A program made the translations under genes and the position numbers. This document shows, in pieces, positions 7,343-62,862 of a stretch of 64,000 nucleotides of DNA. Under the pieces are notes generated by a model. The model had not been told where the DNA came from. It was given only the letters and a program-made list of their open reading frames with translations, and ran no database searches. How positions within the stretch are numbered: the stretch's first letter is position 1; every line of letters starts with the position of its first letter. This stretch comes from Patellaria atrata CBS 101060. Its lineage: Eukaryota. The stretch is taken from positions 1,887,817-1,951,816 of the forward strand of contig MU006090.1 of NCBI GenBank assembly GCA_010093705.1, written 5' to 3'.

Positions 7343-9348
7343 ATGGAAAGCAAAGAGAAGGATGTCGAGAAGGGTTCACCTTCTCCCCCTCGTTATGATG
7401 GAACCGCCGATTATGGTACCGCTGAGGAGACTAAAACCGGCACCAAGTTTAGCAGGTTTATTGATAGCTTCAAGAGGAATCCCAATGCAAGGGTCGTTAC
7501 GGAAGCAGTCGATGAAGAAGGAAAACCACTTGAGGATCAGCCGCCAGCTGAGCCTGCGTTGGCGATGAAACTGAAGCCTCGGCATTTGCAGATGATTGCT
7601 ATTGGGGGTTCTATCGGTCAGTTCACTGAGATATTGCTCTGTTATGACTTTTCAGGGCTAATATTCGATATCAGGTACTGGTTTATTCGTCGGATCGGGA
7701 TCAGCACTTGCCAACGGTGGTCCAGCATCTCTCGTCATCTCCTTCGGCTTGATTGGTATCATGCTGTTTTGCACCGTTCATGCACTGGGAGAACTTGCTG
7801 TTGCATTTCCAGTAGCGGGTTCATTTGCAGTGTATTCCACACGATTCCTCGACCCTGCGTGGGGTTTTGCTATGGCATGGAACTATGCTCTGTCCTGGCT
7901 CGTCACGCTTCCGCTTGAAATAGTGGCAGCGTCAATTACAATATCGTATTGGCAAGGTGCAAAAGATGTGAATCCGTCGGCATGGGTGACACTTTTCCTG
8001 TTCTTGATTATCAGTATCAACCTTTTCGGTGTCAGGGGATACGGTGAAGCCGAATTTGTCTTCTCTATCATTAAGGTAGCTGCTGTCATCGGGTTTATGT
8101 GAGTTTTGAAATATTTCTTGAGACGGATTTCCGCGAAACTGATCAGTCAATAGTATTCTAGGCATAATCATTGATGTAGGAGGGATTCCAGGCGGGCCCG
8201 GTTATATGGGAGCAAAATATTGGTCAGTATCACTTCTACCCCCAACACATCCCCACTGTGATACTGACCGTTGTAGGTATAATCCAGGAGCATTCCACAA
8301 TGGTTTCAAAGGGCTTTGCTCCGTCTTCATTACAGCCGCTTTCTCTTTCTCCGGAACGGAGCTCGTAGGTCTCTGTGCTGCCGAGACAGAGAACCCCCGT
8401 AAATCTTTACCCACAGCTGTAAAGCAAGTCTTCTGGCGTATCTGTCTGGTAAGAATTCTCCGCACCATTCCACACAAACGTAACTCAAAGAACAAGCTCT
8501 CATACCTCCTATTTTAGTTTTACATGATCTCCCTCACCGTCGTCGGCGTCCTCGTCCCCTACGACGACCCCAACCTACTCAATGGCAGCGGTAGCTCCGA
8601 CGCCAACGCCTCCCCCTTCGTCATCGCCGTCCGCAACGCAGGAATCAAAGCCGTCCCCTCAATCATGAACGTCGTCATCATGATCGCCGTCCTCAGCGTC
8701 GGCAACTCCGCCGTCTACGGCTCCTCCCGCACCCTCGCCGCCCTCGCCGACCGCGGCCAGGCCCCCAAAATTCTAGGCTACATCGACCGCTCCGGCCGGC
8801 CCCTCGTATCCATCCTCCTCGCCTCCGCGATCGGCTTCTTCTGCTACATCGTCGCCGCCGGTACCGACACGAGGGAAGCCGCGTTTAACTGGATGGTCGC
8901 TATCTCCGGCCTCGCCGTCATCTTCACCTGGGGCTCTATCTGCGCATGTCACATCCGCTTCCGGCAGGCGTGGAAAGCACAGGGACATACGCTGGACGAG
9001 CTCGCGTTCCGCTCGCAGGCCGGCGTTGTCGGCTCCTGGATTGGCCTTGTCATGAATATCCTTATCTTGGTGGCGCAGTTCTGGACCGGCTTTGCGCCCG
9101 TCGGGTACGGTGGTATGGCCGGCGGCGAGAGGACGGAGAATTGGTTCATGAGTTATCTCGCGTTTCCGATCGTGTTGTGTTTTTATATTGGGTTTAAGGT
9201 TGTCAGGAGGACGAGGATTAAGAGGTTGCATGAGATTGATATTACGAGCGGCAGGAGGGAGCTTAATCTTCAAGAGATTTTGGAGGAGGAGCGCGCAGAG
9301 CAGGCGAGGTGGCCGAGGTGGAAGAGGGTTTATAAGACGTTTTGTTAA
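7343..9348 (+). CDS. Amino-acid permease, APC/YAT family (GAP1-like), 5 exons
   Basis: LKPRHLQMIAIGGSIG|TGLF, ALGELAVAFPVAGSF, GYGEAEF, GFKGLCSVFITAAFSFSGTELVGL, ETENPRKSLP, HIRFRQAWKAQG, C-terminal FC. Exons joined through canonical introns. Confidence 0.93.
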
Positions 9349-9811
9349 AGACGGGAGGGGTTTGTCGATACTGACCCGGGGGAAGGGGGCGATTTATGGT
9401 TCGGGGATATTGAGTGTGTACTGTACTTTACCTTATTGTAAGAAATAAATTGGTTCTTATGGAGTGCTGGATGTTGAGGCCCACACTATTCGCCGATGTG
9501 TATTTCGGTTCCTGCACACGTGGTAAATAGTCGTTGCGACAATGAGAGCGATGGGACGACGGCTATGTGGATAACTCTTTTACCTAATAAGATACACAAC
9601 ATGGTAAGAATTCGGATGAGAGTGACTCGCCAGAAGGGTGGCTCGGAAGCGGGATACTGACGACCCTGTGACGCTTTCGAGTACAGGCACAGAAAATTAT
9701 TCGTGAAATGAAAAGACTCGAAACACGCAAAACGGCCACCTATTACTTCCACCTCCTGGCCGCTAAGATAGCCTCAGACAACCCCTACCATATCCTCAAC
9801 ACGGTAGCGCC

Positions 9812-11889
9812 CTAATGGCGCTTCCCTCCCAGTATCATAACATGATTGAACAAAACCGTAATACCAAGCGCCAAACACAGCGTCGGCAAGAGCCACGCGG
9901 AGAATAGATAATTCACCATGACCGTCTGTCCCGGCGCCGCATACATCAAGCTGAGCAGCGCAATCCCCAATCCAACCAAAATATTCGAAGCACCCTTGAG
10001 CCACTGTCCTGACGTCTTGGGACGTTCGGAGATGTATCCGAGCACGCCGATGAGGATGACGGATGTGCCTGCGCAGATAAAGAAATATAGGAAGATAAGC
10101 GATTGCATATCGTCTACCTTGTCGATCTGGCCTTCGATGGTCGGCTCGTGGCCGTGCTTGGGTTCCGGTGCCTCGACGCCGATGGAGGCGAATAGCGCAT
10201 TGGCACATGTCAGTAGGATATCCGATATGCTGTTCGCAATCACGCTCTGTCGCTCCTCGGTAGTGATGTTCGCAGTGCTGGAGGCGAGAATGGCGGTGAG
10301 GGATCTGTTCACGTTTTCTATGGCTGGGCCGAAGTCAACACCGGGTTGTGGGTAATCGAACACGAAGGACCATGCGGTTGTGTTCAGATCGGTGACTAGG
10401 GATCCGGTGGAGTTCCAATGGGAGATATCGCGGGTGATATATTTAGTGAAAGTGAAGATGCCTTCGACGGCCTGCCGAAATTTGATGAACTGGGAGATAC
10501 CTTCAAGGCAAAGGACGAGCGTGAGGTGGAAAGGGAAGTGTAAGAAAGACCAGATTTGTTGAAAGATGGTTCCAAAGTGTTTTTCTGAGATGCGATCGAA
10601 GTAGAGCATGTAGAGGAAGTACTATCCGAGGGCGTTAGCCATCGTCTTTTTATACTGCCCAGCCATCAGGCCATGTAAAGCTTACAATGATCAGAACTGA
10701 CGAGAGGATTTGTCCAATTATCCCAGCGCGGAAGGTATAACCGTTATTCACAATAGATGAGATAGCTGTGCAAATAACCGTTATGCCCTCCCCGAGAATG
10801 ATGAGCGTTAGGAGACTCATGCGTTGGACGAAATGAGTACCTTTGAAACTGATAACTCGCCAAAAGGAGGAGATACCGATGACGATAGCGGTCTCCAAGA
10901 TAGCGACAACATAGAAACAGATATAGACATGGTTGATTACCGGATTCTCAGGGCTGATGTTCCTCGGAAATACAAATGCTAATCCGAGATAGATCATGGC
11001 TGCCACAAAGTACGTACCGATGATTAATGCCATGGGTAACATCGTCCGACGATAATTCCTGACGAACCATATGGACAGACCATATTGGAGACAGAGAACC
11101 AATCTACTTGCCATCAGAATAAAAGCCATAGCCTTGAACTCAGAGTAATCGGCTATCTCCTTGCCTGGCTTCCAGGTTGGGGCCACAACGGCAAAGCCAA
11201 CCATAACTCCAAATTGTCCAGCTTTGCAGCAGCGATTGAAAACACTATCGGCGGAAAATCGAACATCGTAGAGGGAGACCTGATACCAGGTGAACCACAA
11301 TAAGCAGAAAAAACCAATGTACGCGGTTAGAGCTGAGTCTGGTCAGCAGTGCTCTTCCGGTTACCCCTATCATGCTATTCCTCGACTATACGCTGTCTCT
11401 AGCTATACTATGCAGAAAATGGAGAAAGGTATATGGATGTGCTGGAATCATATAATGATATTCACCTTGAAATTTACAAATAAGTGTATAGTACAGGAGT
11501 CTAGAATGCAAATCATGAGGGGGAAGGAGACACTGAATGATGAGACTATGGTACGTACAACTTTTATCATTGATTTCGAGCAGACTACTGAATGTTGATA
11601 AATTCGCCACGAAGAAAAGGTCGTAGAAGAGTTCTATGGTGGTTGCTTCAGCATGGCGGCGGAATGCGGGTGTTTCGCAGAAGGCCTCGTCTTCAGCTAC
11701 CAATGGAATTGAGTCTCGACCTGGGCTTTGCGTGTGTATAATCCCATTTGATTTCTGACTACCTGCATATGTAGTGTAGCTTTGCATGATTTCCATTCTC
11801 TCGGCTTTGACAAGGGGGCTAGCAATGAACTTGAGATGCCCGTGGCCATGTTTCCCAGGCTCATGTTTCCCGTGGCCATATTCTGTCAT
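9812..11889 (-). CDS. Low-temperature-requirement A (LtrA)-family polytopic membrane protein, 3 exons
   Basis: ATTIELFYDLFFVAN, LWFTWYQVSLYDVRFSADS, HFVQRMSLLTLIILGEG and WSFLHFPFHL motifs typical of fungal LtrA-like proteins. Introns at about 11558..11332 and 10686..10623. Confidence 0.78.
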
Positions 11890-18351: not shown

Positions 18352-20446
18352 ATGGGTCGTGAAAAGTATCCCAAGCAATCGCTTGGCGCGCTGTACAGCC
18401 GGATCAAACAGGTAAATAGTAAGCGCGGCTTTAGGAGATTGATAGGTGCTAATGATATCTTTAGTCGCGTATTCTGATGGTTGGAGCTGGTGGAATCGGT
18501 TGTGAGCTTCTTAAGAACCTCGTCTTGACAGGCTTCGGAGAGATCCACATCGTGGATCTTGACACTATCGACTTGAGCAATCTGAATCGTCAATTCCTAT
18601 TTCGACATGAACATATCAAGAAATCAAAGGCATTGGTACGTGGAACATATTTGAGGACGTGGTTTGCCTGGCTTGCTAATAGGCTGACATGACAATAGGT
18701 TGCGAAGGAGTCAGCTGGGAAATTCAATCCGCATGTTAAGCTCGAAGCGCATCACGCAAACATAAAAGACCCGCAGTTCAATGTAGACTGGTTCAAATCA
18801 TTCAATGTGGTATTCAACGCACTTGACAATCTCGAAGCACGCCGCCACGTGAACCGTATGTGCCTTGCGGCAAACGTTCCTCTGATTGAGAGTGGTACAA
18901 CGGGCTTCAACGGACAGGTCCAGGTTATTGAAAAAGTACGTCAAGCTATATATTCTTTCATGGGGGCCATTTAGGAGATATTAATTCACAATAGGGCAAA
19001 ACGGAGTGCTACGATTGCGTCGAGAAAACCGCCCCCAAATCTTTTCCCGTCTGTACAATCCGGAGCACACCTAGCCAACCGATACATTGCATCGTATGGG
19101 CCAAGTCATATCTATTTACAGAGATATTTGGTGTCGGAGAAGATGAGGCGCCCGAGCTTGACCACTCTGATGATGGAGACAATGCGGAGGAGATCGAAAA
19201 ACTACGCCAAGAATCACAAGCCCTGAAGAGAATTAGAGGGTCCATGGGTTCTGAGGACTTTCCTCGGCTAGTGTTTCAGAAGGTCTTCAAGGAAGATATA
19301 GACCGATTGCGAAGTATGGGCGAGATGTGGAAAACGAGAAGACCTCCGGAGCCATTAGACTTCGAGATGCTATCCCAGGATGCGCTAGGTGTTGGACAGA
19401 TGGTTGCACAGCAAGATCAGACCGTTTGGAGCGTCGCGGAGAATTTCGTCGTGTTTTGCGATAGTTTGAAGAGACTCAGCAACAGGCTTGAGGAGCAAAG
19501 GGCAAATGCGGACATGGGAAATGCTCCTGCAATTCTGACGTTCGACAAGGACGATGTGGATACGCTAGATTTCGTCGCTGCAGCAGCGAATCTGCGGTCT
19601 CATATCTATGGCATCGAGACGAGATCGAAGTTCGACATTAAGCAAATGGCTGGTAACATCATTCCAGCTATCGCAACAACCAACGCTATGACCGCTGGTC
19701 TCTGTGTCCTACAAGCATTCAAAGTACTCCGCAACGAACTCGGCAAAGCCCGCATGGTCTTCCTCACCAAATCCACCGAGCATATCATTACCGCGGAGAT
19801 GTTACGACCACCTCGGCCGAATTGTCCAATCTGCAGTGTCGCGCAAACGAAAGTTCAAGTTGACACATCAAGAGCGACACTCAACGATCTCGTGGACGAC
19901 CTCCTAAAGCTCGAGCTTGGATATGAAGGCGAGTTCAGCGTGAGCAGTGAAAATGGTATGCTATACGACCCAGAGTTCGATGACAATCTTAGCAAAAACT
20001 TCAAGGAACTGGGATTGCAGGGTGATAGCTTCATCACCGTCATCGACGAAGAGGATGAAAATCCGAGGGTCAATCTTGTACTTTCGATTTCTGAGCAGTA
20101 AGTCGTTTTCTTGGCTTCCCCCCCCCCAAGAAAGCCATTACCCCCAAATATACTTACAATATTTCACAGATCCATGCCCGAGGACTCCAAACCAATCCAG
20201 CTGTCAGAAAAAGTCGAGATCCCACACAAACCCAAGTCCACCCCCGCTTCTACAGTTATACCCAACGGTGCCCTCACAAACGGCACCAACGGCCACGCTC
20301 CCGTGAAGCGTAAAGCCGAGGAAGCAGACCTAGACGACGAACAACGCCACAAACGCGGCAAAGTAGCAGAGGAAGCAAAACCCAAAAAAGGCGCCGACAT
20401 CATCGTCATAGACGAGGCGGACGGAAGCATCCTCATCGACGATTAA
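18352..20446 (+). CDS. UBA2: SUMO-activating enzyme E1 catalytic subunit UBA2/SAE2, 5 exons
   Basis: [30 protein letters not shown], catalytic [34 protein letters not shown], Zn-binding CPIC, and a C-terminal NLS plus SIM-like IIVID...ILIDD. Confidence 0.95.
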
Positions 20447-20703
20447 CCCCCCTCTTCACTCTATACCCCTACATGCTGTATCCGAACAGCGTAAGTCATT
20501 CCCATTCCCCGATAATCTATCTCTCCTATTTCGTGTCCGCGAGGAGTGGTCACCCACTTTGCATATTGCAGCATCTAGCAGCAGTTTGGACACTTTTCGT
20601 TCGTCGCTATCTCAGCTAGAAAGCAAGCGGGGATTCCCCATAATTGGAGTTCCGGCGGTCTTTTTTTGCTTTATCGAAGACTATACCATATACCATCCCC
20701 CCC

Positions 20704-20803
20704 NNNNNNNNNNNNNNNNNNNNNNNNNNNNNNNNNNNNNNNNNNNNNNNNNNNNNNNNNNNNNNNNNNNNNNNNNNNNNNNNNNNNNNNNNNNNNNNNN
20801 NNN
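20704..20803. other. Assembly gap (100 N)
   Basis: Run of exactly 100 N, flanked by a C run on the left and GGGG on the right. Confidence 0.99.
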
Positions 20804-21430
20804 CGGGGTTATCTTGGACCCTCATCGTGGGCTTGAGAGCCCGAGTCCCCATCTCTCTCTCTTATGTTGTATACTACATTGCTTCGGTGGGAGTTTGGGT
20901 GGTGCACAGCATCAATCAGTACGATCGAGAGAGATATCTTGCGCGAAGGCTATTTGAGGGACATATGGAGGCGGCTTGCTTGCTAACACTGGGATAGGCT
21001 GGTTTGAGGGTTTGTATATTAGTAAGGCTTGAGAAGGGGGATTCGGCGTAGTGGAGATAGAAAAGGGGATTAGTTAGCTCGTGAGGGCTTTAGTAATGAT
21101 GGCTTGATTGTATTGGCTGTGCAGATATCCATGGGCCGTGGATGTGGTCCTTGATCACTACAGAGAATACGACCGAGTACATCGTGATTCACGAGAAGAA
21201 GGTTCGTGCATGCGAATCAAAATCATAGTGGAGACGTCCGATGAAAATTTGTAGAACTACCCTTTCGGGAATAGCAAAAGTCCCCTTGATGTTCTGTCAA
21301 AACGCTCCTAACAATAAAAACACATGCAAGATTCGTAAATTCGTTGCTTAACAAGTACCAAAAGCAGTCGCTTATACTTTGATACCAAAAACGCTATCTG
21401 AGCCGTATATCTTCCATCCACTTCATTTAT

Positions 21431-24076
21431 CTAATACGTATACCCGTCCCCCACCTCACCAACCGGCATCCCCTCGACACCCGTCCCAACCCTCTCAACA
21501 CCCAACCTCTCCACCCCATCCCGACCCCTAAGTCTCCTAAACCCATACCTGCCCCCCAATCGCTCAACCCTCCTCTTCAATTCCCCCGTGCTAACCCACT
21601 CGCCCCCCACAACCTCTCCCACCAACCCCCCGGCGCAGAGATAACTCCCCACGCCGCCCAGGGTATCCGGATTGCGTGGCAAAATGGGCAATCCCCGGCG
21701 CCAGACGATGAGCGCGACGAGCACGATCAGCATGAGCCCGAGGAGCGCGAAACTGATGTAGAAACAGAGCAGCATTTCTTTTTTGAATTGGCCGGTCGTG
21801 TAGGGCACGCCGACGAGGGCGAGGACGAAGAGTTCGGAGAGGAGGGCCAGGAGGGCGAGGAGGGCGGCGAAGGGGTAGTGGTGCCGGAGGAGGGGCAGGA
21901 TCGAGGTTATGGGGAGTGTGTGCCGGGTTGTTAGGAGGGTGTGGGAGGGATGGGACGGCGTGGGGCGGGAGAGGCGGAGGAAGGGGGCGAGGGTGTGAGT
22001 GTCTGGGATGGCATTAGTGTTTGTGTTTGGCGCTCTTAGGGGGGGTCTATACCTCTTTCCAACCTCTTCCATTGGCCTGCGATGATGCTACCTAGCGTCG
22101 TCATGATAAACTTGGGGCCGAAGCCGTTGCTGTTGAAGAAGTTGTTAAACGAGGACTTGCTTCCGTCCTTGAAGTACGCGATTAGCAGGGCCAGCACACC
22201 GATCAGTAGGAACCCGAAGAGGACGTCTTCGATTATGCTCGCGCGCTTCGTGTGGTCCCATTTCTGGCTGTCTTCGAAGTTGTGCGGGTTGTTGTCGAAC
22301 TCGGGTACACCGCGGTAGCTAGCGTCATGGGGCTCAGCGGGTATGATACCGTAGCGGATCACGCCGTCCGCGGCCTGGTATTCGCCGAGCCGGTAGTTCT
22401 TGTTGCGGAGGTGCTCGCGCATCTTGCTGCTAGGAGAGTAAGGGTCCATGGAGCAAAAATCGTCCATGACTTCGGGGTGGTGGAAGAGGGTTGCGACGGA
22501 TGCGATGGACGAGGGGTCGGAGTATACACCCGTGTTGCGTCGGCATAGCAGGACCATCACACCGATAGTCATGATGGCGGTAAAGATGAGGAAGGCTTCT
22601 AGGATACGAGCGACGATGGGGTCGACCGTCAACCGCGGAGGCCAGCATGGATTCTTCGAGCCGGGTTTTCTGATGGGACAATTTTCATAATCGGTGTCGA
22701 AGTAGAAAGTTTCCGAAGCTATAGATGGTATGAAAGATACCAGGAAGAAAGTAAATGAGCTCATCAGTATGACCCAGTGTCCTTTCCAGAAACCTTGAAC
22801 TGGCTCCCACGCAAGATTAGTTGAGAGATAGTATGCGCACAGGGTGTCCTTTGCTGTAGCACCACCCGGCCTAGCCAGTTGGGAGAACGGTTCGATGAGC
22901 TTGGTCGTCGCAAAGACTGCATTCCAAATATCTCGGTAGAAAATGGCTACTAAGACAGGCAAATACGCTCCTAGGAAAGTAGTCTTGAAATTCCAGACAA
23001 GTACCCTACGCGTATTGCTAGCACCAGTTCCGTCTGTTGCTGTCGAGGCATCGGCGGTGGCTGTCCGAGTCGCAACTAAGATTGGAATAGTACTACCAAG
23101 TGAGTTCGTGGTATACTGGATATCTGCTATGAGGGAAGATATGGGCACAACCCTTCCTGCAGAATTGGTGCTAAACATGAACTCATTTCCTGAGGAGGCA
23201 ACAGGAATGACGTTTCCTTGAGTATCAGTAGTTAATACTACCTCTAATGAAGTAGTGAATGTCGTAGGAACAGGTGTGTCCACGGGGAGCACCTGTGTCT
23301 CAGAAGGGAAATAGCTCGAAGGTGCATACCCTGGAGGAGTCGAGCTAGGTGGGAACGTAGGAGTAGGATTCGAGCCTGGTGACGGATCAGCACCAGGCGA
23401 AAGGTCAGTACCAGGGGAAGGATCAGCACTTGGGGAAGGGTCGGCATCGGGTGCTGGTGATGGATCCGGCGTAGGGTCTGGTGTTGGATTTCCAACAGTG
23501 GGCGTAGGTAGAACTGGGTCAATTACAACCGTTACGTCCACAAAATCCGTTTCGGTTGGCAAGAGAGTCTGGGTTACGGTTTCATCAACAAGATCTGTCC
23601 ACTGCGGTGTGGATGCGATAAAGGTTGTGTCGTCGGTTACTGAAGGTGTCTCCTCAATCGGAGCTGGAGTTGGAGACGGAGAGGGAATCAAAGGGTCTGT
23701 GACCTCCTGGCGTTGAATAATCTGTCTAACGACATCACTGTCTCCGGCATTCAGTCCAAGGACGTTACTACGCTTGTCTAGCACCTCTGCAGTTCTGTCT
23801 ACGACATCCGCTCCACCAATGCGTGCTTTCCTGGGTAAAGTTCGCGCTTCATATTCCACAACAGCGAGGAGTGCGAGGGTAATGAGAGTGATCAAAATCA
23901 GGGACGGGACACGAAGAATCCATGGACGGTAACAATTTCGTCTTGACGGTGGAGAATTGTCTATTACCCTGTGTGTTAGTCTTTGATAACTCTCCAAAGT
24001 CCCTCTGAAGCAACGAAAGGGTTCACTTGCGTGTATCAGCAACAGCGTATACTGTTTGGTCGGCTTCCTTCGCCAT
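21431..24076 (-). CDS. DUF3433-type multi-pass membrane protein with a Pro/Ser/Thr-rich insert
   Basis: RPWILR-TM N-terminus, two internal repeats of the PF..L.RP..A..TL...Y motif (EPFSQLARPGGATAKDTLCAYY; APFLRLSRP...HTLL), DPSSIAS and PRNPDTLGG. An intron near 22051..22004 joins the two ORFs. The start exon (ATG 24076) is uncertain. Confidence 0.75.
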
Positions 24077-38667: not shown

Positions 38668-39539
38668 GCGGATTTATTCTAGAAGGTTTGTTACTGTTGG
38701 ATATTTTTCAGATTGGAGTTTTGGATACCTGGGTGGTTTGTAGGTATATGGCGTTGTGGGCGATGTGTGTTCTGCGGTCAGGGTTGGGTTAACTACATTT
38801 ACGTTGGGTGACTGCGTATGGTGGGGTGTACGGTGCGGTCGACTTAAGGTTCTGGATATTGCATGGTGTTGGGAAGTGACAGTATATTACAACTGAATAT
38901 GTGATGAGATACCAAGAGTGATGCACAGCATAGAGGTATTGAATTGGAAGTGGAATTGTGAACCTTACATTATATCAGAAAGCGACTGCACTGTACAACG
39001 TAGTCAATTTATTCAATGCGACGTAGGGAGCAATGTGCACGGTACTCTACATGTATACGGTGCGGTCTTGAGTTGTACTGTACAAAGTACCTATCCAGTC
39101 CAGTTCTCACATCCAATAAATCACGAATAGCGGTAAAATTCGGTACAAAAGGTTATCTGCATCCGAAAGAAACTATCCCGTACTCCGTTGCGAACGCCCT
39201 TACGCTATTTGACAACCACGCTCTCTATCTCACTTCATTCTCCCATCCAGAAATAGTGAGGATTACCTCGACCTACCCCGATATATAGGCATATATCAAC
39301 GTCTGTGTATAGTGCAGAGATATACCTTTTCTATACCTGCCCGCGCTATTAGGGTATGGCTACCGGTACGGCGTATTAGGGAACGGTACGGTACAAGGTG
39401 GAGACGTTTATGGGCCATTTGGGCTGCGTATGCTGTACATTTTATAGGTTAGCGAGAGAGGGGTACGGTACAGTTGAGGGAAGCGACCAGGTAGGTTAGA
39501 GATAGGAAATAAGGTGGTTTATGGGGAAGACGAAGGTGG

Positions 39540-41076: not shown

Positions 41077-42986
41077 ATGGGTCTTCTCGGACACGGTGAA
41101 GAGTTCGCGAGCGATCCTCGTCTCGCCAACATCGCGAAAGCGGACACCATACCATGGTATAGGAAGCCGAACCTGCGTTTACTGTATCTCATTCTGATAC
41201 CATGTGCTCTCGGCGTCGAGATGACATCTGGATACGATTCCTCTATGATGGTCAGTTCTCTCTTTGGCAATAAGAAGTACAGTACAGTACATGTGCTAAT
41301 ACTGCATAGAACGGCCTTCAAGCTGTACCTGCCTGGGATAAATGTATGTAGTGTTAATTATACGTAAAGGTCTAAAAGCTAAATGTCACTTCAAAGACTT
41401 CGACTCCCCCAAGGGATCCCGTCTCGGACTGTACAATGCCATCTACTCATTGGGTGCTTTGCTCGCTATTCCCTTCGTTCCTTATGCCTCAGACCGCCTA
41501 GGACGACGAAAGACAATCTTTATGGCGTCTATAGTTATGATTATTGGTGGTAGGTTCAAGTATTCTAGCGATTTGTACCTCTTCGCAATGTCTCAGTCAC
41601 TGACCATTTATAATTAGCTGTCTTGCAAGGCTGTTCTCAAAACTACTCCATGTTCATGTTCTCACGATGGTTACTTGGCTTTGGCATCCCCTTCGCCATC
41701 GTCAACGCTTCGTCTCTTCTTGGTGAATTGGGATACGCCAAAGAGAGACCTATCCTCACTAGTGTCTTCAATGCATCCTGGTTCGTCGGGAGCATCGTTG
41801 CAGCTGGTACAACTTATGGAACTTTTGCAATGACCACCACCTGGTCATGGAGGATCCCCAGTCTCCTCCAGGCCTTCCCCTCCACCCTACAGATTGTCTT
41901 CATGTGGTTCTGCCCCGAAAGCCCCCGCTGGCTCATCTCAAAAGACAGACACGAGGAAGCATTAGCCATTCTCCAAAAATACCACAGCGAGGGTATCGAC
42001 GGCGACGAATTCGTCCGTCTCGAATACGCCCAAATCCGCACTACTATTGCCCTCGAGCTCGAAAACGCAAAGAAATTCCAGTGGGCCGATGTCCTCCGCG
42101 ACGCGCCCATGCGCCGGCGTTTCTTCCTCGCCGGCGTCATCGGCTTCTTCACCCAGTGGTCAGGCAACGGACTGATATCCTTCTACATGAAGATAATCCT
42201 CGAGCAGATCGGCATCAACAACCCGCGAACGATCCAGAAGGTCATCCTTAGTTATACCTGCTGGGGCTTCATTAACGGCCTTCCTATTGCTCTGATAGCG
42301 CCACGGTTCCCCAGACGTAGGATGTTCCTCCTCTGCACCTTCGGCATGCTGACCGTCTACACCGTCTGGACCATCTGCTCCGCCCGCCGGGAAATCACAG
42401 GCGCAAATTCCGCTGCCATCGCCGTCGTTGTGTTCATTTTTGTCTACTCGCCGTAAGTCCCCAACTCCTTCCCGCAGCGGCTTTACAGCAGGATATCCCT
42501 TCCCCCCTTCCCCCCCCCCTACAACCTAGTCCACTAACACCCCCCAGGATCTACAACCTCGGCTGGAACGCGATGACCTACACCTACCTCGTCGAAATAT
42601 TCCCCTTCCAGCAGCGCGCCAAAGGAATCGCCTTCGAGCAGCTCACCGTGCGCCTCGCGAATTTCTTCAACACCTACGTCAACCCCATCGCCCTCGACGC
42701 CATCTCCTGGAAATACTACATCGTGTACTGCATCTGGATGCTCGTCGAGATCACGACCGTGTACGTGTTCTTCCCCGAGACGCACAATCGCACTCTAGAG
42801 GAGCTAAGTTTCATGTTCGAGGGCGAGGACGTCCAGAGGAGGGTTGAAAGGGTCGTGGAGAAGGAGGTGAGGTTTGCGGAGGAGGTGGGCGTGCCGAATA
42901 CGGGGATTGAGCTGGTGCAGCGGGAGGTTTTGGCGGAGGTGGGGGGGAAGGAGGAAAGAGTGGAGGAGAGAGGGAAGGGGGTTTAG
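41077..42986 (+). CDS. MFS sugar porter, lactose/cellodextrin permease (Lac12/CDT-like) clade, 5 exons
   Basis: TSGYDSSMM|NGLQ, SDRLGRRKT, RWLLGFG, ELGYAKERP, WSWRIPSLLQ, PESPRWL, FTQWSGNGLISFY, YLVEIFPF, PETHNRTLEEL. Confidence 0.92.
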
Positions 42987-43156
42987 GCCTTTGCGTTAAG
43001 GGAATGTGGGCACGTTAGCATCGGTTGGGAAACATGTTTGGAGGAAGACGTTCGGGAGGAGGGGAACATGTCGGTATTTCTGATGCGTGCTCTATCTAGG
43101 CAAATCAGGTCATGAACAGGGGGGAATCTCCAGCTGTTATGACAATCAGTGTTCCG

Positions 43157-49062: not shown

Positions 49063-49537
49063 ACGGTGATGGAAAGGGGTCAAAGTTGGGGAATATGGAA
49101 ACTGTGAACGACATGTCAATCGTGTACTTTCCTTATTTCTGGGCAGAGCTTGTGTAAACGTTGGAAGCGTTGGACGGTTGGAGATGGGAATTTTAAAGTA
49201 CATTTCGTTGTAGAGTGATAGGAGACATTGTCAGTTGGGTATTTGAACGATCTCAAAGTTGATACTGGTGAAAAGATAATAATTCAACATATCAATTTCT
49301 AGAGACGAATTGTGATTATTTGTTCATGTTTTTATTCCGATTAACAATGAAAGGACAAAATCCTCATTCGTGATTGAAGGAAGAAATGGCAGTAGTTAAT
49401 CCTTCTGCACCCGTGCCATGAACACCGCTCATCGTTCTGACGTCGTCCCCTCACTTCCAAATCTGCTCCACCATCCAAACGGTATCAATTGAGCCACGAG
49501 TTCCCAACCCAACCATCCCCTTCAATTACCACAAAAA

Positions 49538-49983
49538 ATGTCAGGCATAATAGACTTCAGTCAGCCGACGCTATGGCGTACGTGCTCTCCAATCCCCCAA
49601 TACACACACCCAGTTAACAACGTGCGCATACAGTGTCTGTAGCCACGATACTCTTCAACCCGACATTCTGGAAGTAAGTCCCATTACCAAACAACAACAA
49701 ACGCATCCACTACTGACAGTCTACAGTATCGCCGCTCGTCAAGGTACAGTGCCTTCACCCTTCACCCTTCACCCATCCTCTCAGCTTCGCTATCACCTAG
49801 GCCACCTCCACAATCCCCACGGTATCTAAAGACGATACTAAATATCTTGTTAAACAACCAGAATACCACAACAAAACAATAACAAAGCTCTTCAACAACA
49901 ACCCCCGCCACGGCTGCTACACCCTCGCCGCGACGATCTTCACGCTGGGTATAATCAGAGACTTGATGTACTCCCCCAATCCT

Positions 49984-50023
<40 letters not shown>

Positions 50024-50554
50024 TGGGTTCCCCCAATCCCTAACTAACACCCCCCAAGCTACGAACGCGCCCTCCGCCCCCAACCCCCCCCCCCCCCCCT
50101 CCAGTCCCCAACAATCCAGCACACCGGCACCGCGCTCTTCCTTACCGGCAACCTCCTCGTGCTCTCCTCTATGTACGCCCTCGGGCTCACGGGCACCTAT
50201 CTCGGCGACTACTTTGGGATCCTCATGGACGCGCCCGTGACTTCCTTCCCCTTCAACCTCACCTCCGCGCCCATGTACCAGGGGAGCGCGTTGTCGTTTC
50301 TCGGGTCCGCGCTTTATTGGGGGAAGCCGGCGGGGGTGGGGTTGGCCGCGGTGGTGTGGGTTGCTTATAGTGTCGCGTTGAGGTTTGAAGAGTGAGTTTT
50401 TTTTTTTTTTTTTTTTTTTGGTTTGGGGTTGATTTGGGACTGGGTCTGGGTTGAGTTGGGAGAGCATAGGCTAATGTTTTGTTGGTCTCGTAGTCCATTC
50501 ACCGCAGAGATATATGCGAAACGGGATCGTGAGAGGGCGAAGAAGGCCTCGTAG
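49538..50554 (+). CDS. OPI3: Phosphatidyl-N-methylethanolamine N-methyltransferase (PEMT/Opi3), 6 exons including a 17-nt exon
   Basis: Spliced FNPTFWN-IAARQE-YHNK...GCYTLAATIF.LGIIRD, SSMYALGLTGTYLGDYFGILMD...FPFN...PMYQGS, RFE-DPFTAEIYAKRD. Confidence 0.92.
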
Positions 50555-50994
50555 ATCGATCCTCTTCGTATCAGTCAGTGGCCATCTACAGCCGATTTAT
50601 CTCAAAGAGGGTTATCGAGCTCGTTCAGAGGAGCAGCAAGGGCAGGGAGGAGTACATACAAAGATGTGAACAAAACCCCATATGATTCAACATTGGGCAT
50701 AGCGGAGGCGTTGGTCTGATTTGGGGAGGTATTCAACTGCCTATTATGTTTTGCGCATGATACATTATTAGGAGGGGAAGATCTGGTTCACATAGCACGA
50801 TACGTAGTCAGGAATCACACGAGTCAAATACATGCACGGAAAAACAAGGTACAGCCTAACGAGGACTATCATTATGAATTGGGATCTCCAACTATGCTCT
50901 CGCAGCCCAAAGCTTCGCACCCACATTCGCCCCGTCTACAGAACAGAACCGTCTCAGTATCATACTGTATACACTAAATACGCACCATGTGCAT

Positions 50995-52753
50995 CTACTC
51001 CTCTTCAACGGGAGCCTCCTCATCGTACTCCTCCTCGCCCTCGGAGATAGAGGCCTCTTGGTATTGCTGGTACTCGGAGACTAGATCGTTCATGTTGCTC
51101 TCAGCCTCAGTGAACTCCATCTCGTCCATACCCTCTCCAGTATACCAATGCAAGAAAGCCTTGCGACGAAACATAGCAGTGAACTGGTCACCAACACGCT
51201 TGAAAAGCTCCTGGATGGAGGTAGAGTTGCCGACGAAGGTGGAGGACATCTTGAGACCGCGTGGTGGAATGGAGCAGAGAGCAGTCTGGACGTTATTGGG
51301 GATCCACTCAACGAAATAGGACGAGTTCTTGTTTTGCACATTACGGACTTGGTCCTCAACCTCCTTCATGGAGACCTTGCCACGGCTAGATTGATGGTTA
51401 GTAAGAGTGATTTGTGAATAAATAAATGTGACTTACAAGATAGCAGAGCAAGTGAGGTAACGACCATTTCTGAAATCAGAAGCAGCCATCATGTTCTTTG
51501 GGTCGAACATTTGTTGAGTCAACTCTGGGACGGTGACAGCACGGAATGAGTAAGCACCACGACTGGTGAGAGGAGCGAATCCAACCATGAAGAAATGCAG
51601 ACGAGGGAATGGAACCATATTGACAGCCAATTTTCGGAGATCAGAGTTGAGCTGACCAGGGAACCTGAGACAGGTAGTGACACCGGACATGACAGCGGAG
51701 ACGAGATGGTTCAAATCGCCATATGATGGGTTGTTAAGCTTAAGAGTCCTCATGCAAATGTCATAGAGAGCCTGAGATGGTTAGTTTATGGTACACCTTC
51801 GTATATTTATTTGCATACCTCATTGTCAATGCAGAAAGTCTCGTCAGAGTTCTCAACGAGCTGGTGAACAGATAGAGTGGCGTTATAAGGCTCAACGACA
51901 GTATCTGAGACCTTTGGAGATGGGACAACGGAGAAAGTCGCCATCATACGGTCTGGGAACTCCTCACGAATCTTGGAGATAAGGAGTGTACCCATACCGG
52001 CTCCGGTACCACCACCAAGGGAGTGAGTAATCTGGAAACCTTGGAGGCAATCGCATCCCTCTGCCTCACGACGCACGACGTCAAGGACCTGGTCCACTAA
52101 CTCGGCACCCTCAGTGTAGTGGCCCTTAGCCCAATTATTACCAGCGCCAGATTGACCGAAAACGAAGTTGTCGGGACGGAAAAGTTGACCGAAAGGGCCA
52201 GCTCGGACAGCATCCATGGTACCCGGCTCCAAGTCGACGAGGACGGCACGAGGAACGAACTTGTTGCCAGATGCCTATGTATGTTAATATATAAGGTATA
52301 GCTCTTTGAGACTGTGGACGTGCCTCATTGAAGTAGACATTCATACGTTCCAATTGAAGGTCAGAGGTGCCATTGTACCTAGTTGGAGTCAGTAATTGTT
52401 ACGCGTGGGTAAAAAGGTGATTGAGTCGAAGAGCAACGCACACTCCTGATCCATCAAGACCATGTTCTCCGGAGATAATTTGCCTGTTGACAGTTCAGTG
52501 TTTGTTTGCAATATGGTTTTGTTGGAGCCTAAAGGGGCGTACCAGAACGCAGCACCGATTTGGTTACCCTACATTCAATCAGCAAAACCATCATAGAGCA
52601 AGAGAGATTTTAGTTCTTACGCATTGGCCGGTTTGAAGATGGACCTAAACACCAGAAAGCTCGAGTTAGCAAATTTCTACAATTGTTGTTGTGCAGGGTT
52701 TGTCGCGTGAAAACAGTGGAGAGCGGGGAGAGTAAACATACAATTTCACGCAT
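50995..52753 (-). CDS. TUB2: Beta-tubulin, 8 exons
   Basis: [30 protein letters not shown] signature, [11 protein letters not shown], acidic tail [15 protein letters not shown], and the typical Pezizomycotina 5' intron pattern. Confidence 0.98.
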
Positions 52754-53251
52754 GATGGTAGAGTGTTAGAGTATGAATTGATGAAGATGAAGCTGGTGAT
52801 TATGGAGCTCGTTGGGGAATTCCAAAGTATGTGAGAAGAGAGGTAGAGGTCGAGGTTAGAGTTCTGTGGATAAGAAGTCTGTGGTGTGGAGTTGAGGATT
52901 GGAAGGAGAGGGGGATAGCGGTGAGAATGCAGGCACTAGGCTTGGCAATGCACTGGGCGGCACAACTAACTAAACGATAGCGCGTCTGTGCTCAGAAATA
53001 TCATTGCAACTCACTGCCACTTCACTATATAAAAGTGCTCTTATACAGTAGTGAAATACTCTCAAGATTTGTAGGTCAATTGAGGCTCCCTAATTCTTGT
53101 TCTGCCTTTGTAGCTACCTGTTCGTTGTTGTCCATTTCCATGCAAGCTAAGACGTAAATATTCAGACGATCTCATACATACATTGCAGTCTCTATGCTAA
53201 TCATCGCCTTATCATCTGCTTAACATTCAATTCTCAACGCTCAATTAGAAC

Positions 53252-55646: not shown

Positions 55647-56837
55647 CTATATATTTTTCTTCACGGTTCCGTTCTGCACCGGTGTCGAAGAAACATCATA
55701 TCTTCTTTCTATATTCGGTAAAGAGGTGAAAAGACGAGGCCAGACGAGCTCGAACTCATCTTGTCTCCCGTTCAAACAATGCCGCAGCCAAATTCCCCAG
55801 ATGATGTAGAAGTAAGCACCAGTCCCCGTCATTAAATGCCTAGATTCATCATACGTCAGATATAAGTTAGAACTGCGTGAATGAGAGTGCTTACCACCAT
55901 CCATGACCCTCTAGCAGGATGCCCCACGGCAACCCAACCTCTCTCCGCCACTGTCGCAGCTTACCGCAATATATATTATCCAGATTCCAAATCGCAAAAC
56001 CTCCAAGGAATATCGCCAAACCATATGCCACCATCATCCACATATTCCTCAAAATCTTCTCGTCTCTTATATCTTGCCTAGCTCGTTCGGTGCTCGATTG
56101 CTGTGAGGGCGCCACTACGCCGTTCAAATGAGCTGTTTTCTCCTTACTCTTCTTATTCAACGCTGGGCGGATATTTATCTCCATGATATACATGCTCCGG
56201 AAGAGAACGATGGCCGTAAGTACTGCATAAGCATTCTGGTGAAAGGTCGGATCTTGTAAGTAGTGATAATACAGGCTTATACCGAGGGCGATGGTGATCA
56301 GGAAGCAGCCTAGAGCGACTGAGTAGGCATGGGATTTTCGGTGGGAAAAGGTGGCGTAGAACATGAGGCAAGTGGTGTAAATCATGGAGAGTTCGTCGAC
56401 GAGCTGCATGGGATCTAAGGGCGTATGGGTTATCCCATGGCACGTCAAACATTGCTCACTACTTTTTCTTGTATATTGATTTTGGTATAGGAAGTACGTA
56501 CATTTGAGTGTGGTATGAAATAAAAAGCTTCCCGTTCCAACGAGAAAGTATCCAACAAATGCGACTAGGAATATTTGGTCATGGTCGTTTCGTATACAGC
56601 TTCTGGCGCCCCTTATGGCTAGGAACATAAAGAGAAGATTCGTCAGGGTATTTATTATCTCCGCTGAATATATGGTCGCATAGTAGTCCTGTTGTAACAT
56701 TGATTAAAGCTCCTGTTGACACGAGATGGTTATGGGGCTTCATGTACCTCTTCGCACCAGTTAAGTGTCGAGGTTACTGGAGACCAGTAACCATCCTGCG
56801 CAGGAGGATATGCAATGAAAGGGAGATTCATGCCCAT
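55647..56837 (-). CDS. Alkaline (phyto)ceramidase, YPC1/YDC1-like (CREST superfamily), 4 exons
   Basis: GYWSPVTSTLNWCEE|DY...AEIINTLTN, GSFLFHTTLK|YPMQLVDELSMIY, WNLDNIYC, LEGHGWW|HLMTG. Confidence 0.93.
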
Positions 56838-59393: not shown

Positions 59394-61094
59394 ATGTCGC
59401 CAACCCCAGGAGGTTTCTGGGACTCGGAAGACGAATGGCACGAAGCGGGTTGGCACGCCCGCCATGTCCGTCCTCCTCCTAGCGCAAGAGGGTATACCGA
59501 ACGACAAACCCGACAAGAACGGGAACGCGAAACCCGCCGCGTCGACTATCTCGTCCCTGAAACCAATTTCCAAAGCGGGTCGCTTCATCGTTCCCGCTCT
59601 CACGGCCATGCTCCAGCTCCAAACATTCGGACCGACGGTCCAAACATTCGCATCCACTTGACCCAGGAATCCAGACAAGACGCTAAGAACGAGACTCCCG
59701 CGCCGCCTCCTGCCGCTCCGGAGCTTCCTGAGAGGAGAAGGAGTCCATCTAGAGGCCGTCATCGATCACATCGATACATCGATGAGGATGTCCTAGACGA
59801 TGAGATCGAGGCGGAGGTGCGGCGCCAGATGCGGGCTGAGTTTCGGTCGCGGTCACGAGGCCGGTCCGACGCGGGACACTGGCGTGAGCCAGAGCAACAA
59901 CATCCCAGTTACAGCGAATTTCAGCTGCAGCTAGCCCGAGACAGACTCAAGGAAGCCGACGCAAAGCTGCAGTGGGAGAAGGAAGAGGAGCTCATCAAGA
60001 AGCGCATGGAGCTAAAGTATATGGCTCAGAAAGCGGAGCGAGAGGAGGAAGAGGCGAAGTTCAAGGCCGAGGAGGAGAGGATTAAGAAGAAGTATGAATT
60101 GAAAGCGGCGCAGGAGGCGGCGAGGAAGAGGGACGAGGAAGAAGAGATGGAACAGATGAGACGACGTATTCTACTTGAGAACCAAGCCAAGGTTGCAAAA
60201 GCAGAAGCCGAAGCCAAAGAAGCCAAACAGCGCGCTGTGGATGAGTACGAGCGACGGAAAGCGAAGGAGGCTCAAGAAGCCAAAGAAGCTCGAGAACGCG
60301 TGATAGCGGAGTACGAGCGCAAGAAGGAGCGTGATGAGCGGGAGGAGCGCGAAGCCCAAGAAGAACTCCTCCGCAAGATCAAACGTCAAGAAGCGGAGAA
60401 GAAAGAAAAAGAAGAAGCGGCGTACAAAGAGTTCCTCCGCAAAGCGAAAGAAAAAGAAGAGGAAGAAAAGGCGAAGAAGAAGAAGCAGGAAGAGGAACTC
60501 GAGCAGGAGATGCGCAAACGCCTTGCCCAGTTCGGGTTTCAGGAGAATCAGATACAAGCCGTCTTGGACCCCGAGGAGGCGAAGAAACTGAGGCAGGGAC
60601 AGAGCCCCGCGAACGCGTTGCCCTGGCAGCCACAGCAGCCGACGTATGTCAAGGTGCACAAGGATCATTTGAGTGTCGATACTTTGGCGTATTATGATAT
60701 TCCGTGGGAATATGATCGCGTATGTTTTACCCCCTCCCTGTTTTCTTATCCCCTATAGCCCTTTCCCTTTTCAACCCAATAACCCCTCCTCCCCCCCTCC
60801 CCCCGCCCAAAAAAAAATACATAAACACACAAATAAATATACTAACACCCCACACAGACCAACCGCGACTACATCATCATCCTGCGCGAAATGGACAACC
60901 GCGAGACCGACATCCTCTTCGAGCATACGCGGCGTCTGCGCACAAGGGGCACGACCAGACTCCTGATCCAGGAAAAGGAGAACAAGAAACCGGATTATGC
61001 GTGGGTGCGCAAGAGGGCGAGTCCGAGTCCCGTACGGAGGACGCGCAGGAAGAGTTCGCCTAAGCGGGTGGGGCTTGGGGCGTTGTTGTTGTAG
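59394..61094 (+). CDS. Conserved fungal coiled-coil protein with a C-terminal PTY.KVH..HLS..TL..Y..PW domain (DUF8035-like), 2 exons
   Basis: Long E/K/R-rich helix, then PTYVKVHKDHLSVDTLAYYDIPWEYDR|TNRDYIIILREMDNRETDILFEHTRRLR across an intron at about 60720..60857. Confidence 0.8.
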
Positions 61095-61680
61095 GGGGTT
61101 GGGGATGTGGATTTTCGAGGGGTGGAGGGGAAGGGGGAGATATGGGGGTGATGACGATATGAATTGGATGATCGGTTGTGCATTTGAGGGGTGGGTTGGG
61201 TGTCTAAACCCCCCCTCCTCTCTTCCCTTCTATTCTATTTCTCCGCTTTCCCTTCTTTCGTTCTCTGAGTCTATCGGTGTTGAAGTTCCAGTTATCCACT
61301 CCCACCTATCATTTTTTTTTCCCACTTCTTTCATGTCTGGAGTTAGAGTTGATGATGTATGTATGCGTTTGAGTTTGAAAGGCAGTATCCGATACATTAG
61401 GTAGATATATTAGTCTTTAGTCTAATCTGGGATATATACTGTTACTGTGGAGTAGAGTCGATATGTATTTCCTCCGTGCGTGTATACGTCCATCGCTCAT
61501 GCCTGTACCCGTAAGGTACCTGTATATATACACCACCGCACACAAAAACAGCCGAGTAACGAGAGAAGACTCTCGCCGACGGATTCTCAACATCGTATCC
61601 CACAATATCTTCCCCTTGCCCCCTTTCACGCAACCTTCTTTCACGAAAATTCTCCCCACTTTCCACCATTCTCCTAACCC

Positions 61681-62862
61681 TCACACCCCACCCAACCTCC
61701 CCTCCGCCCGCCGGATCAACTCCTCATAAAGCATCCAAGCAAGCGCACTACTGACCGCCTTGCGCGCCATCCTGAGCCCAAGTCCGTCGAACACGCTGCG
61801 CAAGCCCTCCTCGCGCAGCATCATGCGCGCCGCTTGCACCGTGTTCCCGTACCGTTGGGGCATGAGCTGCAGCCGGGTCTTGATGGCGTCGAAGGGGTTC
61901 GTGAGAAGCGTTGCCAGTCCCGCGGCCGCGACGCCGGATGTGAAGTTTATGCCTGCGGCGGCTTTGGGGGAGAGTTCCGGATTCCCGTTTGCGTTCACGT
62001 TTTGTACTCCCCCCGGTGGGGATGGCGCGTCCAGGGGAACTGGTACATGATGGGTTGTGTGGGTTGTGCCCCTCGAGAAGACGGCGGAGAGTTCGCGCTT
62101 GGAGAGCTCGTAGAAGAGCACGTAGAGACCGGCGAAGGGCGCGTCGCGGACGGCGGTGGCGCCGAAGCCGGCGAAGAAGCCGCGGGGGCCTTCGGCGCGG
62201 AGGATGGTCATGAAGGCCGAGGGGAGGGAGGGGTAGGTGTAGAGGGAGGACTCGAAGCGGACTTTGAGGACTGTGATGGGCATTGTGACGAGGCCGGCGA
62301 AGGCGCGGGCCAGGCCGCCGGTTGTGAGGTTTGCTAGGGCGCTGAGTTTGGGCAGGGAGGAACTGGTGGCGGTGGGGTTAGGAGGGTGTGTGGGGTTGGA
62401 GGGCGTAGGCGAGGTTGGCCGGAGGAGGGCGGCGTGATGACGGAGCGCGTTGAGGGTGCTGAAGTAGAGGGCCGAGCCGAAGCCGGTGCGGAGGGCTGAG
62501 GGGAGGGTGCCGCGCCATAGGGCTTTTATGGGGTGTGGGGAGGAGAGGAGGGAGTGGATCGTTCCGCGGAGGGTTAGGTGCGTGGTTACGGTGCCGTGTT
62601 GTTGTAGGCGGGTTTTGAGGAGATCGGCGGGTTGGAGGAGGACTGCGGAGGTTAGACCTGAGGAGAGGCCGGCGAGGAAGTGGGATGCTGGCGTGGATTA
62701 GTTTGATGGTTGAAGAGAGGCTGTTTGGGGTTTGATGGTTGAAGGGAGGGTTTGGTGGAGAGGTAGATTGTTAGGGAATGAGATGGGAAGGGTACGTAAG
62801 GTATGTATGGGAGAGGATGGCTTACTGGAAGACGACTTGCGCTTTTGGCCGCCATTTGACAT
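61681..62862 (-). CDS. HEM25: Mitochondrial carrier, glycine transporter SLC25A38/Hem25 type, 2 exons
   Basis: [93 protein letters not shown]. The RT, RD and RK substrate contacts are typical of SLC25A38. Confidence 0.88.

Follow-up and report, generated by a model that had tools for sequence, protein, structure and literature searches.

Abrupt C-to-G skew switches at the 3' ends of single genes in a 64-kb stretch of the Patellaria atrata genome: probably a strong case of a known fungal skew

The window analysed here, a 64-kb stretch (64,000 nucleotides, nt) of Patellaria atrata CBS 101060 (contig MU006090.1, positions 1,887,817 to 1,951,816), is a gene-dense piece of a filamentous ascomycete genome, as judged from Pfam scans of long open reading frames (ORFs), in which short domains of the forward (+) strand are rich in C and then, abruptly, rich in G. 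These domains are probably the 3' parts of single genes that display the gene-oriented skew known from fungi, with a cause other than selection on the coding sequence (CDS), and it is very likely that they are instances of this known skew. The window is an unusually strong example of an already known pattern, not a new lineage-specific system, and shows clearly, at one locus, a property of fungal genes that has been published but is little known. The domains had been picked out from the letters alone in an earlier note (hereafter the original prediction), which took them for the footprint of a strand-specific, bidirectional process centred on points at convergent gene ends.

Eight GC-rich domains had been listed as going from C/A-rich to G/T-rich on the + strand, and the C-to-G polarity was confirmed for all eight when GC skew (the excess of G over C) was measured on that strand in 200-bp windows. 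The skew goes from -0.38 to +0.56 in domain 8520-9420, from -0.46 to +0.47 in 20100-21150 (which spans a gap of N), from -0.79 to +0.71 in 21430-22040 (the extreme case), from -0.49 to +0.52 in 38200-38900, from -0.45 to +0.68 in 41850-43070, from -0.68 to +0.53 in 49440-50470, from -0.64 to +0.47 in 60730-61200 and from -0.63 to +0.74 in 61500-62830. The domains are indeed GC-rich, with a local GC content of 0.52-0.69 compared with ~0.46 in the rest of the window, and their halves are unequal: the C-rich half, which carries the GC peak, is 300-1000 bp long, and the G-rich half is ~300-400 bp long and has a lower GC content. A scan with a half-window of 300 bp placed the C-to-G switch points at 9100, 20886, 21661-21707, 38610, 42796, 50281, 60903-60971 and 61782-61857, within ~100 nt of the positions originally proposed. 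Such switches occur every 2-5 kb. The reverse, G-to-C switches are fewer and weaker, with 10 C-to-G versus 7 G-to-C at a threshold of 0.6, 6 versus 3 at 0.8, and 3 versus 0 at 1.0.

These abrupt switches are real, and not an assembler artefact. An assembly or sequencing artefact could be suspected from the only assembly gap, 100 N at 20704-20803, which lies inside a listed domain and within a long poly-C tract, and from the homopolymers, which are hard to sequence; at the gap, the contigs of two sequencing runs stop just short of 20804, with loose ends of 20 and 28 nt that are almost pure C. However, Logan contigs from these two runs, probably of DNA, match 8000-27900 with 0 base differences and 0 indels, at a word depth of ~310-460 (both runs come from one sample and are possibly the assembly's own reads, the contigs being independent and the sequencing not). 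Reading frames are also open, and conserved protein domains intact, across the skew domains, and the chance that an artefact explains them is negligible.

Whether the domains could be built as inverted repeats was also considered, and this idea was rejected. A scan of the whole window (seed 10, arms at most 2 kb apart) gave just four inverted pairs, three of which are matches between a C-tract and a G-tract, 73-86% complementary; since most pairs are of this kind, the domain halves are not copies of each other.

The switches belong to single genes, and not to points between convergent genes. Genes were called from Pfam scans of long ORFs, with stops taken from ORFs and Pfam matches and introns inferred by eye, and for each of them we computed a stop-anchored change, that is, the sense-strand skew in -200 to +100 relative to the stop codon minus that in -800 to -300. 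In a core set of 13 genes with a Pfam-supported or long terminal ORF, the mean change is +0.479 and positive in 11 (z = 6.4), bearing out the claim that the pattern lies near gene 3' ends; when eight less certain gene ends are added, it is +0.338 and positive in 16/21. Neither mean was reached in any of 20000 random placements. On average, sense skew is ~-0.15 upstream and ~+0.16 from -200 to +100. Logistic fits in 11 genes, chosen for having a positive change, put the switch midpoint 31-338 nt upstream of the stop, with widths ranging from unresolved steps to ~380 nt. By coordinate subtraction, 8 of the 10 strongest C-to-G switches sit 57-308 nt 5' of a stop. Of the other two, that at 39365 is just beyond the stop of an unannotated ORF and that at 25553 falls 5' of the DUF3433 ORFs, in sequence that carries no annotation and may be the C-rich 5' region of that gene.

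Convergent gene pairs carry two switches, one for each gene. The pairs permease/LtrA-like, UBA2/DUF3433, OPI3/tubulin and coiled-coil/carrier all show an up-down-up profile, with one switch inside each gene and the opposite, G-to-C, switch occupying the space between them. A C-then-G sequence is its own reverse complement, so that the + strand looks alike for genes of both orientations and two convergent genes produce two neighbouring domains. The strand symmetry in which the original prediction saw the sign of a bidirectional process is thus present by construction and is no evidence for it. As to whether the sign of the skew simply follows the direction of transcription, it is fixed by position along the transcription unit and is not constant within that unit. 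GNL3L and Aa_trans, each followed by a gene on the same strand, also show the change, in a weaker form. The ten convergent genes average +0.57 and the three same-strand cases +0.18, a comparison of few cases in which some neighbour orientations are uncertain.

The idea that the domains record point-centred, bidirectional events was weighed against this arrangement; an example of such events, placed at gene 3' ends or in the space separating convergent genes, would be meiotic double-strand breaks that are resected and then repaired with a GC bias. Their GC content of 0.52-0.69 is what conversion hotspots, expected to show GC peaks, might leave, and the strands that run 5'-to-3' away from each centre are G-rich, which would fit strands newly made in repair. 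The density of hotspots in yeast is in a range comparable to one switch per 2-5 kb. However, there is one switch per gene rather than per intergene, the convergent intergenes carry the opposite switch, and the centres are in coding exons, within a narrow range of distances from the stop. The two halves also differ in length and GC content, and no motif common to the 11 switch centres was found, the top 6-, 7- and 8-mers occurring in 6, 3 and 2 centres against 95th percentiles of 6, 4 and 3 for random sites. Moreover, the same polarity in 60/60 homologous loci of one gene (see below) would need hotspots conserved at one spot across very distant species, which makes a break-centred origin very improbable. 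Replication initiation, another of the processes originally put forward, fares even worse. A left-to-right change from C to G is the classical jump at an origin, with a G-rich leading strand, and the origin jumps of bacteria, yeasts and mammals resemble the domains in being C-rich then G-rich and in reading the same on both strands. They differ in spacing, gene independence, long range and a jump in AT skew. Here at least 10 jumps in 64 kb, one every 2-5 kb, are far too dense and are tied to stop codons, AT skew has no jump, and GC skew is back to baseline within 300-1000 bp rather than over a replicon, leaving origins with next to no probability. Gene anchoring, spacing and read support together contradict the break-centred, origin and artefact explanations, and of the strand-specific processes first proposed only the termination-linked one fits.

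Individual genes illustrate how sharp the change can be. The amino-acid permease (7265-9348, +; Pfam AA_permease, 2.4e-65) is C-rich on the sense strand of its last exon (region 8420..9500, with the start of the 3' untranslated region (UTR); ORF 8518-9348) up to ~9000-9100, and G/T-rich from there on (midpoint -307 nt). Third positions of this exon are C in 23-26/30 codons per block in the first four blocks, and in the last two full blocks C in 3/30, G in 15-19 and T in 6-12, yet the protein stays a normal permease despite the flip. Facing it, the LtrA-like protein gene (9774-11904, -; Pfam LtrA, 3.4e-10 on ORF 10650-11342; the stop at 9774 is putative, from the ORF) has in its 3' end (9600..10400) its own weaker switch near 9950-10010, with a sense skew of -0.43 at -800 and +0.43 at -100 (midpoint -237), and a G-to-C switch near 9650 separates the two genes. 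The next pair comprises UBA2 (+, ends at 20446; Pfam UAE_UbL / UBA_E1_SCCH on ORF 18995-20101), whose last exon and downstream region (20100..21200) are C-rich up to the poly-C of the N gap and G-rich beyond, and a DUF3433 protein gene (21431-24081, -; Pfam DUF3433). The last exon of the latter (21431..22012, bounded by an inferred intron at ~22013-22065) is C-rich on the sense strand from 22012 to ~21720 and G-rich over the remainder up to the stop at 21431, with G/(G+C) rising from 0.11 to 0.92 (midpoint -283).

Three further genes on the + strand behave similarly. The PHD-finger protein gene (ORF 37513-38667, ending at 38667; Pfam PHD, 4.6e-07) switches at ~38610-38640 within its 3' part and 3' UTR (37800..39000), has the midpoint closest to a stop (-31), and has a skew of +0.51 in the first 300 nt of its 3' UTR. 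The sugar transporter (ORFs 41614-42456 and 42321-42986, ending at 42986; Pfam Sugar_tr, 3.9e-50 and 1.7e-15) shows a step-like switch at ~42796 (midpoint -192) in the 3' part and 3' UTR (41850..43126). In the OPI3 gene (region 49400..50560, stop TAG at 50552-50554; Pfam PEMT, 2.9e-28), the promoter side, with an upstream skew of -0.41, the first exons and the first intron are all C-rich, and the switch is at ~50280 (midpoint -338). The skews of its two inferred introns differ in sign with where each lies in the gene: the first (~49949-50104, skew -0.72) is C-rich and contains runs of C39 (49985-50023) and C16 (50084-50099), and the second (~50392-50493, skew +0.68) is G/T-rich like the last exon and contains a run of ~T22 (50398-50419). 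These tracts are likely to vary in length between strains. The tubulin gene that faces OPI3 (-; Pfam Tubulin_C) has a strongly C-rich 5' region (52720-52950, sense skew -0.63) and is a weak example at its 3' end (50900..51300), with a stop-anchored change of +0.47.

The last convergent pair shows the same flip running from intron to UTR. In the coiled-coil protein gene (+, ending at 61063; called by reading the sequence), region 60716..61203 covers a C-rich last intron (~60720-60858, skew -0.81), the last exon with a switch at ~60900-60970 (midpoint -106), and a G-rich 3' UTR (skew +0.82) with a sense-strand G-tract motif at 61119-61148. The mitochondrial carrier gene (61681-62697, -; Pfam Mito_carr, 3.5e-54) encodes a HEM25/SLC25A38-like glycine carrier, and the whole gene (61500..62860) is C-rich on the sense strand from its first intron (~62694-62821, skew -0.90) through most of the CDS, and G-rich over the final 150-200 nt before the stop at 61681 and in the 3' UTR (+0.57), with a midpoint at -146. 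Weaker or less complete cases are the GNL3L/Grn1 GTPase gene (+, 3' end 5800..6300; Pfam), with a change of +0.45 and a midpoint at -282, and the ceramidase gene (-, 3' part 55800..56400; Pfam Ceramidase, 8.2e-67), with a switch at ~56199 and a change of +0.58; the Pfam match of the latter covers profile positions 12-215 of 259, and there may be another exon, and with it the true stop, further downstream. Pfam scans also identified the Aa_trans transporter (+, ending at 48967) and a CCH1-type channel on the - strand.

The pattern runs through synonymous sites, introns and UTRs alike, as originally claimed, and this can be seen in codon tables, shuffles, and intron and UTR skews. Synonymous codons were shuffled within each ORF 5000 times, and the observed change at third positions was reached 0/5000 times in the terminal exons of the permease, DUF3433, carrier and sugar-transporter genes and 2/5000 times in the PHD gene; in these five terminal exons the switches do exceed what codon-preserving shuffles yield. 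Internal exons used as controls (CCH1, the large DUF3433 ORF and UBA2) were unremarkable. In the six 3' UTRs measured, the first 140-300 nt after the stop have skews from +0.35 to +0.82. (Some intron coordinates used for composition were a few nt off, and the OPI3 stop was entered as 50555 instead of 50554, which left the results unaffected.) As silent and non-coding positions are all affected, selection on the protein or on its codons is shown not to be the cause.

Base composition narrows down the nature of the change. Pooled over ten genes, the gene body has A.222, C.363, G.188 and T.228, and the 3' end A.226, C.154, G.359 and T.261; mean AT skew is flat, between -0.15 and +0.10. The switch is an exchange of C for G with A and T nearly constant, and so the C-to-G part of the change first described as C/A to G/T holds, and its A/T part is weak. 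In 112 gene-body bins, sense skew and GC content are negatively correlated (Spearman r = -0.34, p = 0.00026), and they are uncorrelated in the 48 bins at the 3' end. All five homopolymers of at least 8 nt inside genes are C on the sense strand. Sense-strand G-tract motifs lie between -118 and +70 of stops (4/4), and the eight C-tract motifs at -268 to -707.

The window shows every one of the gene-level features set out in the work of McLean & Tirosh (BMC Genomics, 2011; PMC3315797), the accessible text of which describes a gene-oriented skew in most of 64 fungi, including Pyrenophora and Stagonospora. There, coding strands have a bias towards C at their 5' ends and towards G at their 3' ends, G and C vary along the gene and A and T hardly do, and fourfold-degenerate sites, UTRs and the usage of amino acids share in the bias; GC skew tends to fall as GC content rises, and positive skew peaks at the stop codon. 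The closest match to the window in that text is its 'fourth group' of species. Alike are the C-biased 5' end and body (5' regions here are at -0.41 and -0.63) with a G-biased 3' end, the shortness of the G-biased region, which reaches into the 3' UTR (midpoints here at -31 to -338), the involvement of degenerate sites and amino-acid usage, the flat A and T, and the negative correlation of skew with GC content. What differs is scale, since their accessible results are species-wide averages with gradual ramps, whereas the window shows single genes with step-like or 170-380-nt transitions and local skews of up to ~0.8 in magnitude. Introns that follow position in the gene, long sense-strand C homopolymers and paired domains at convergent genes are seen here beyond what that text covers: a term search of it found 'intron' once, in an unrelated context, and no occurrence of convergent genes, homopolymers or R-loops. 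A search of the literature from 2012 on gave no later work on the same pattern among the papers listed, which is not proof of absence. Modestly new, on a descriptive level, are the step-like switches of single genes, the opposite skews of introns within one gene and the paired domains of convergent neighbours.

The suggestion that the pattern might be a lineage-specific system is contradicted both by this published breadth, as far as the text of McLean & Tirosh can be followed, and by a comparison of one gene across fungi. The homologues of the carrier are named mitochondrial glycine transporter SLC25A38 in the sources, a type of carrier which we take to be yeast Hem25. Its best protein matches are from Dothideomycetes, with only 62% identity (63-66% in a 12-sequence alignment). 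Conserved positions are kept, the variable loops are rich in Pro, Thr, His and Ser (C-rich codons), and the C-terminus is rich in Gly, so that, where the carrier is unconstrained, its protein sequence appears to diverge faster under the nucleotide bias. The alignment led to 76 metagenome loci, of which we used the 60 that were near full-length with at least 48% identity, after dropping 12 partial matches (L042, L043, L056, L061, L062, L064, L065, L069 and L073-L076) and four distant loci with 38-46% identity (L068, L070, L071 and L072). In these 60 orthologous loci, mean sense skew is -0.34 at -900, +0.35 at -100 and +0.19 just past the stop. The third-position change, computed as the last 70 codons minus the rest, is positive in 60/60, with a mean of +0.64, and at least as large as the window's +1.00 in 11/60. 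Extreme switches occur in other fungi too; in five loci (L067, L015, L022, L036 and L040) the third-position switch is +1.15 to +1.49, above that of the window. How widely the pattern is shared among genes can thus be given as 11/13 or 16/21 in the window, and as 60/60 loci of other fungi for one gene family.

What causes the skew is a different question, for which McLean & Tirosh propose, in the text available, two answers: mutation regimes that differ with the phase of the polymerase, or avoidance of C linked to the supply of cytidine triphosphate (CTP). The most likely cause, we infer, is mutation or repair that treats the two strands unequally and shifts in character near the end of the gene, and we lean, with modest conviction, towards a mutational cause linked to the phase of transcription. 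On the sense strand, C outweighs G on the promoter side and throughout the gene body with its introns, until G takes over within the final 30-340 nt of the CDS and stays in excess for another 100-300 nt of 3' UTR. In the scheme proposed, the elongating RNA polymerase II (Pol II) would leave a sense strand enriched in C. Termination, close to the 3' end, would expose the non-template strand, for example through pausing or RNA:DNA hybrids, and if damaged bases there were bypassed with C inserted opposite, the sense strand would gain G and lose C, with A and T constant.

Two bodies of work offer analogies for parts of this scheme. That abasic sites followed by insertion of C are the specific route is a tentative proposal, drawn by analogy from budding yeast, where, according to the accessible part of Owiti et al. 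(PLoS Genet, 2018; PMC6063437), the base that Rev1 and Pol zeta place across from an abasic site is mostly C, and when RNase H is lost, T>G increases, and does so specifically on the non-transcribed strand, which is left unpaired. The likeness lies in changes towards G (T>G and C>G) on the non-transcribed strand, which go up when hybrids persist, and the direction of this route matches the gain of G and loss of C in the 3' blocks of the window. The difference is that the portion of that study available to us concerns reporter genes in repair-deficient laboratory strains, with effects that are neither genome-shaping nor localised to 3' ends; in addition, this route predicts some loss of T, and neither A nor T is depleted in the window, which excludes T>G as the main flow. 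The nearest mechanistic analogue is the GC skew at human gene 3' ends, which Ginno et al. (Genome Res, 2013; PMC3787257) link, in the text accessible, to R-loops and termination. Common to both are a dense arrangement of genes and a positive GC skew of the non-template strand at their 3' ends, and the human work offers a mechanism by which G-rich non-template DNA, present here too, would be linked to RNA:DNA hybrids and termination. Unlike the window, in which the G-rich block starts inside the CDS and follows a strongly C-rich one, the human case as far as that text describes it concerns human genes and CpG-island biology.

A bolder version, which we regard as doubtful, is that the skew is no gentle ramp and instead has a sharp border between two states, 30-340 nt ahead of the stop, which exons, introns and UTRs all respect and which would mark the change of Pol II from elongation to a termination-competent state. 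The sense strand would gain C before this border, and gain G and lose C after it, perhaps through C placed opposite damaged bases of a non-template strand exposed in RNA:DNA hybrids. Since a G-rich non-template strand would favour more hybrids, the process would be self-reinforcing, and this could account for genes that run to skews near 0.8 and to homopolymers of the C39 type. If true, transitions between polymerase states would be readable from genome sequence alone in such fungi, and the cause of the skew would become testable.

A number of observations weigh against reading the switches as a general, transcription-linked property of the genes of this fungus. The sample is a single 64-kb window with ~21 gene ends. 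Two of the 13 core genes lack the change (UBA2, -0.11, and a queuosine-salvage gene, -0.13), and the switch of UBA2, ~350 nt after the stop, departs from the usual position. Synonymous shuffles were not significant for GNL3L (322/5000), Aa_trans (431/5000) and tubulin (2226/5000), and part of the signal in the orthologues stems from amino-acid composition, the shuffle null of the window's own carrier being already +0.30. Others concern the mechanism. The abasic-site route accounts for the G-rich tail only, and not for the C-rich body. The midpoints are inside the CDS and anchored on the stop codon rather than on the transcript end, and the peak of positive skew at the stop, and not in the termination region, in the available text of McLean & Tirosh is awkward for a pure termination model. 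Finally, the strongest skews are found in transporters and membrane proteins, which are expected to be weakly expressed, and tubulin is weak; strength does not track likely expression, which is a misfit with a simple model of more transcription, more skew. In the same text, the correlation of skew with expression is only R ~0.07-0.1.

A rival reading is selection at the level of RNA or transcription, that is, avoidance of C or preference for G/U in the last few hundred nt, whether through CTP limitation with polymerase speed tuned along the gene or through a need of 3'-end processing or mRNA stability. It is one of the two explanations offered in the accessible text of McLean & Tirosh, and would agree with anchoring on the stop codon and not on the presumed transcript end, with a polarity conserved in 60/60 orthologous loci, and with the clustering of sense G-tract motifs from -118 to +70 of stops (4/4), which could be a functional RNA or DNA element. 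However, strength is very uneven among neighbouring genes and the change is absent in 2/13, which is odd for a general requirement; free protein loops are pulled to Pro, Thr, His and Ser codons in the C-rich part, which resembles mutation pressure overriding the protein; and the C39 and T22 homopolymers in introns resemble runaway bias. We therefore consider selection of this kind improbable.

Antisense transcription offers yet another way to write a G-rich tail, which would then be where antisense or divergent non-coding transcripts have their C-rich 5' end, with the fungal start-site bias towards C written on the other strand. The antisense starts would lie in the 3' nucleosome-free region or in the promoter of the downstream gene, and antisense starts at gene 3' ends are widespread in yeast. 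That 5' regions in the window are strongly C-rich on the sense strand (tubulin, -0.63; upstream of OPI3, -0.41) argues for it, as do the compositions of the C-rich and G-rich blocks, which nearly mirror each other, and the somewhat stronger change at convergent ends (+0.57 for ten genes versus +0.18 for three, some orientations being uncertain). However, three same-strand cases are too few for this comparison, and the switch is found within the CDS, 31-338 nt short of the stop, and not at the expected 3' nucleosome-free region, which makes this explanation quite improbable.

Species with step-like, extreme switches, such as this one, would represent the best material to part mutation from selection. 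The bias seen here is strong enough to reshape unconstrained protein loops and tails. It also has practical uses and pitfalls, as a C-then-G switch marks gene 3' ends, and their orientation, in unannotated fungal DNA, and the skew yields long spurious ORFs and biased C-terminal protein tails, which are relevant to annotation. Skewed GC-rich sequence is poor in stop codons, and ORFs consequently run on to the end of a domain and overlap on both strands, as seen for 21383-21934 (+) versus 21431-22087 (-) and for 61678-62337 (+) versus 61681-62697 (-). Gene finders may over-extend or mis-call C-termini in G-rich gene tails, for example at 21431-21700 (-).

Two minor observations concern other aspects of the window. 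The Pfam LtrA family found in the gene at 9774-11904 (-) is the bacterial low-temperature-requirement A family, and not the group II intron protein of the same name. Outside the skew domains, there is a 20-nt inverted repeat at 63209-63228 and 63868-63887, 90% complementary, with arms 639 nt apart and TACTGTAC-like units.

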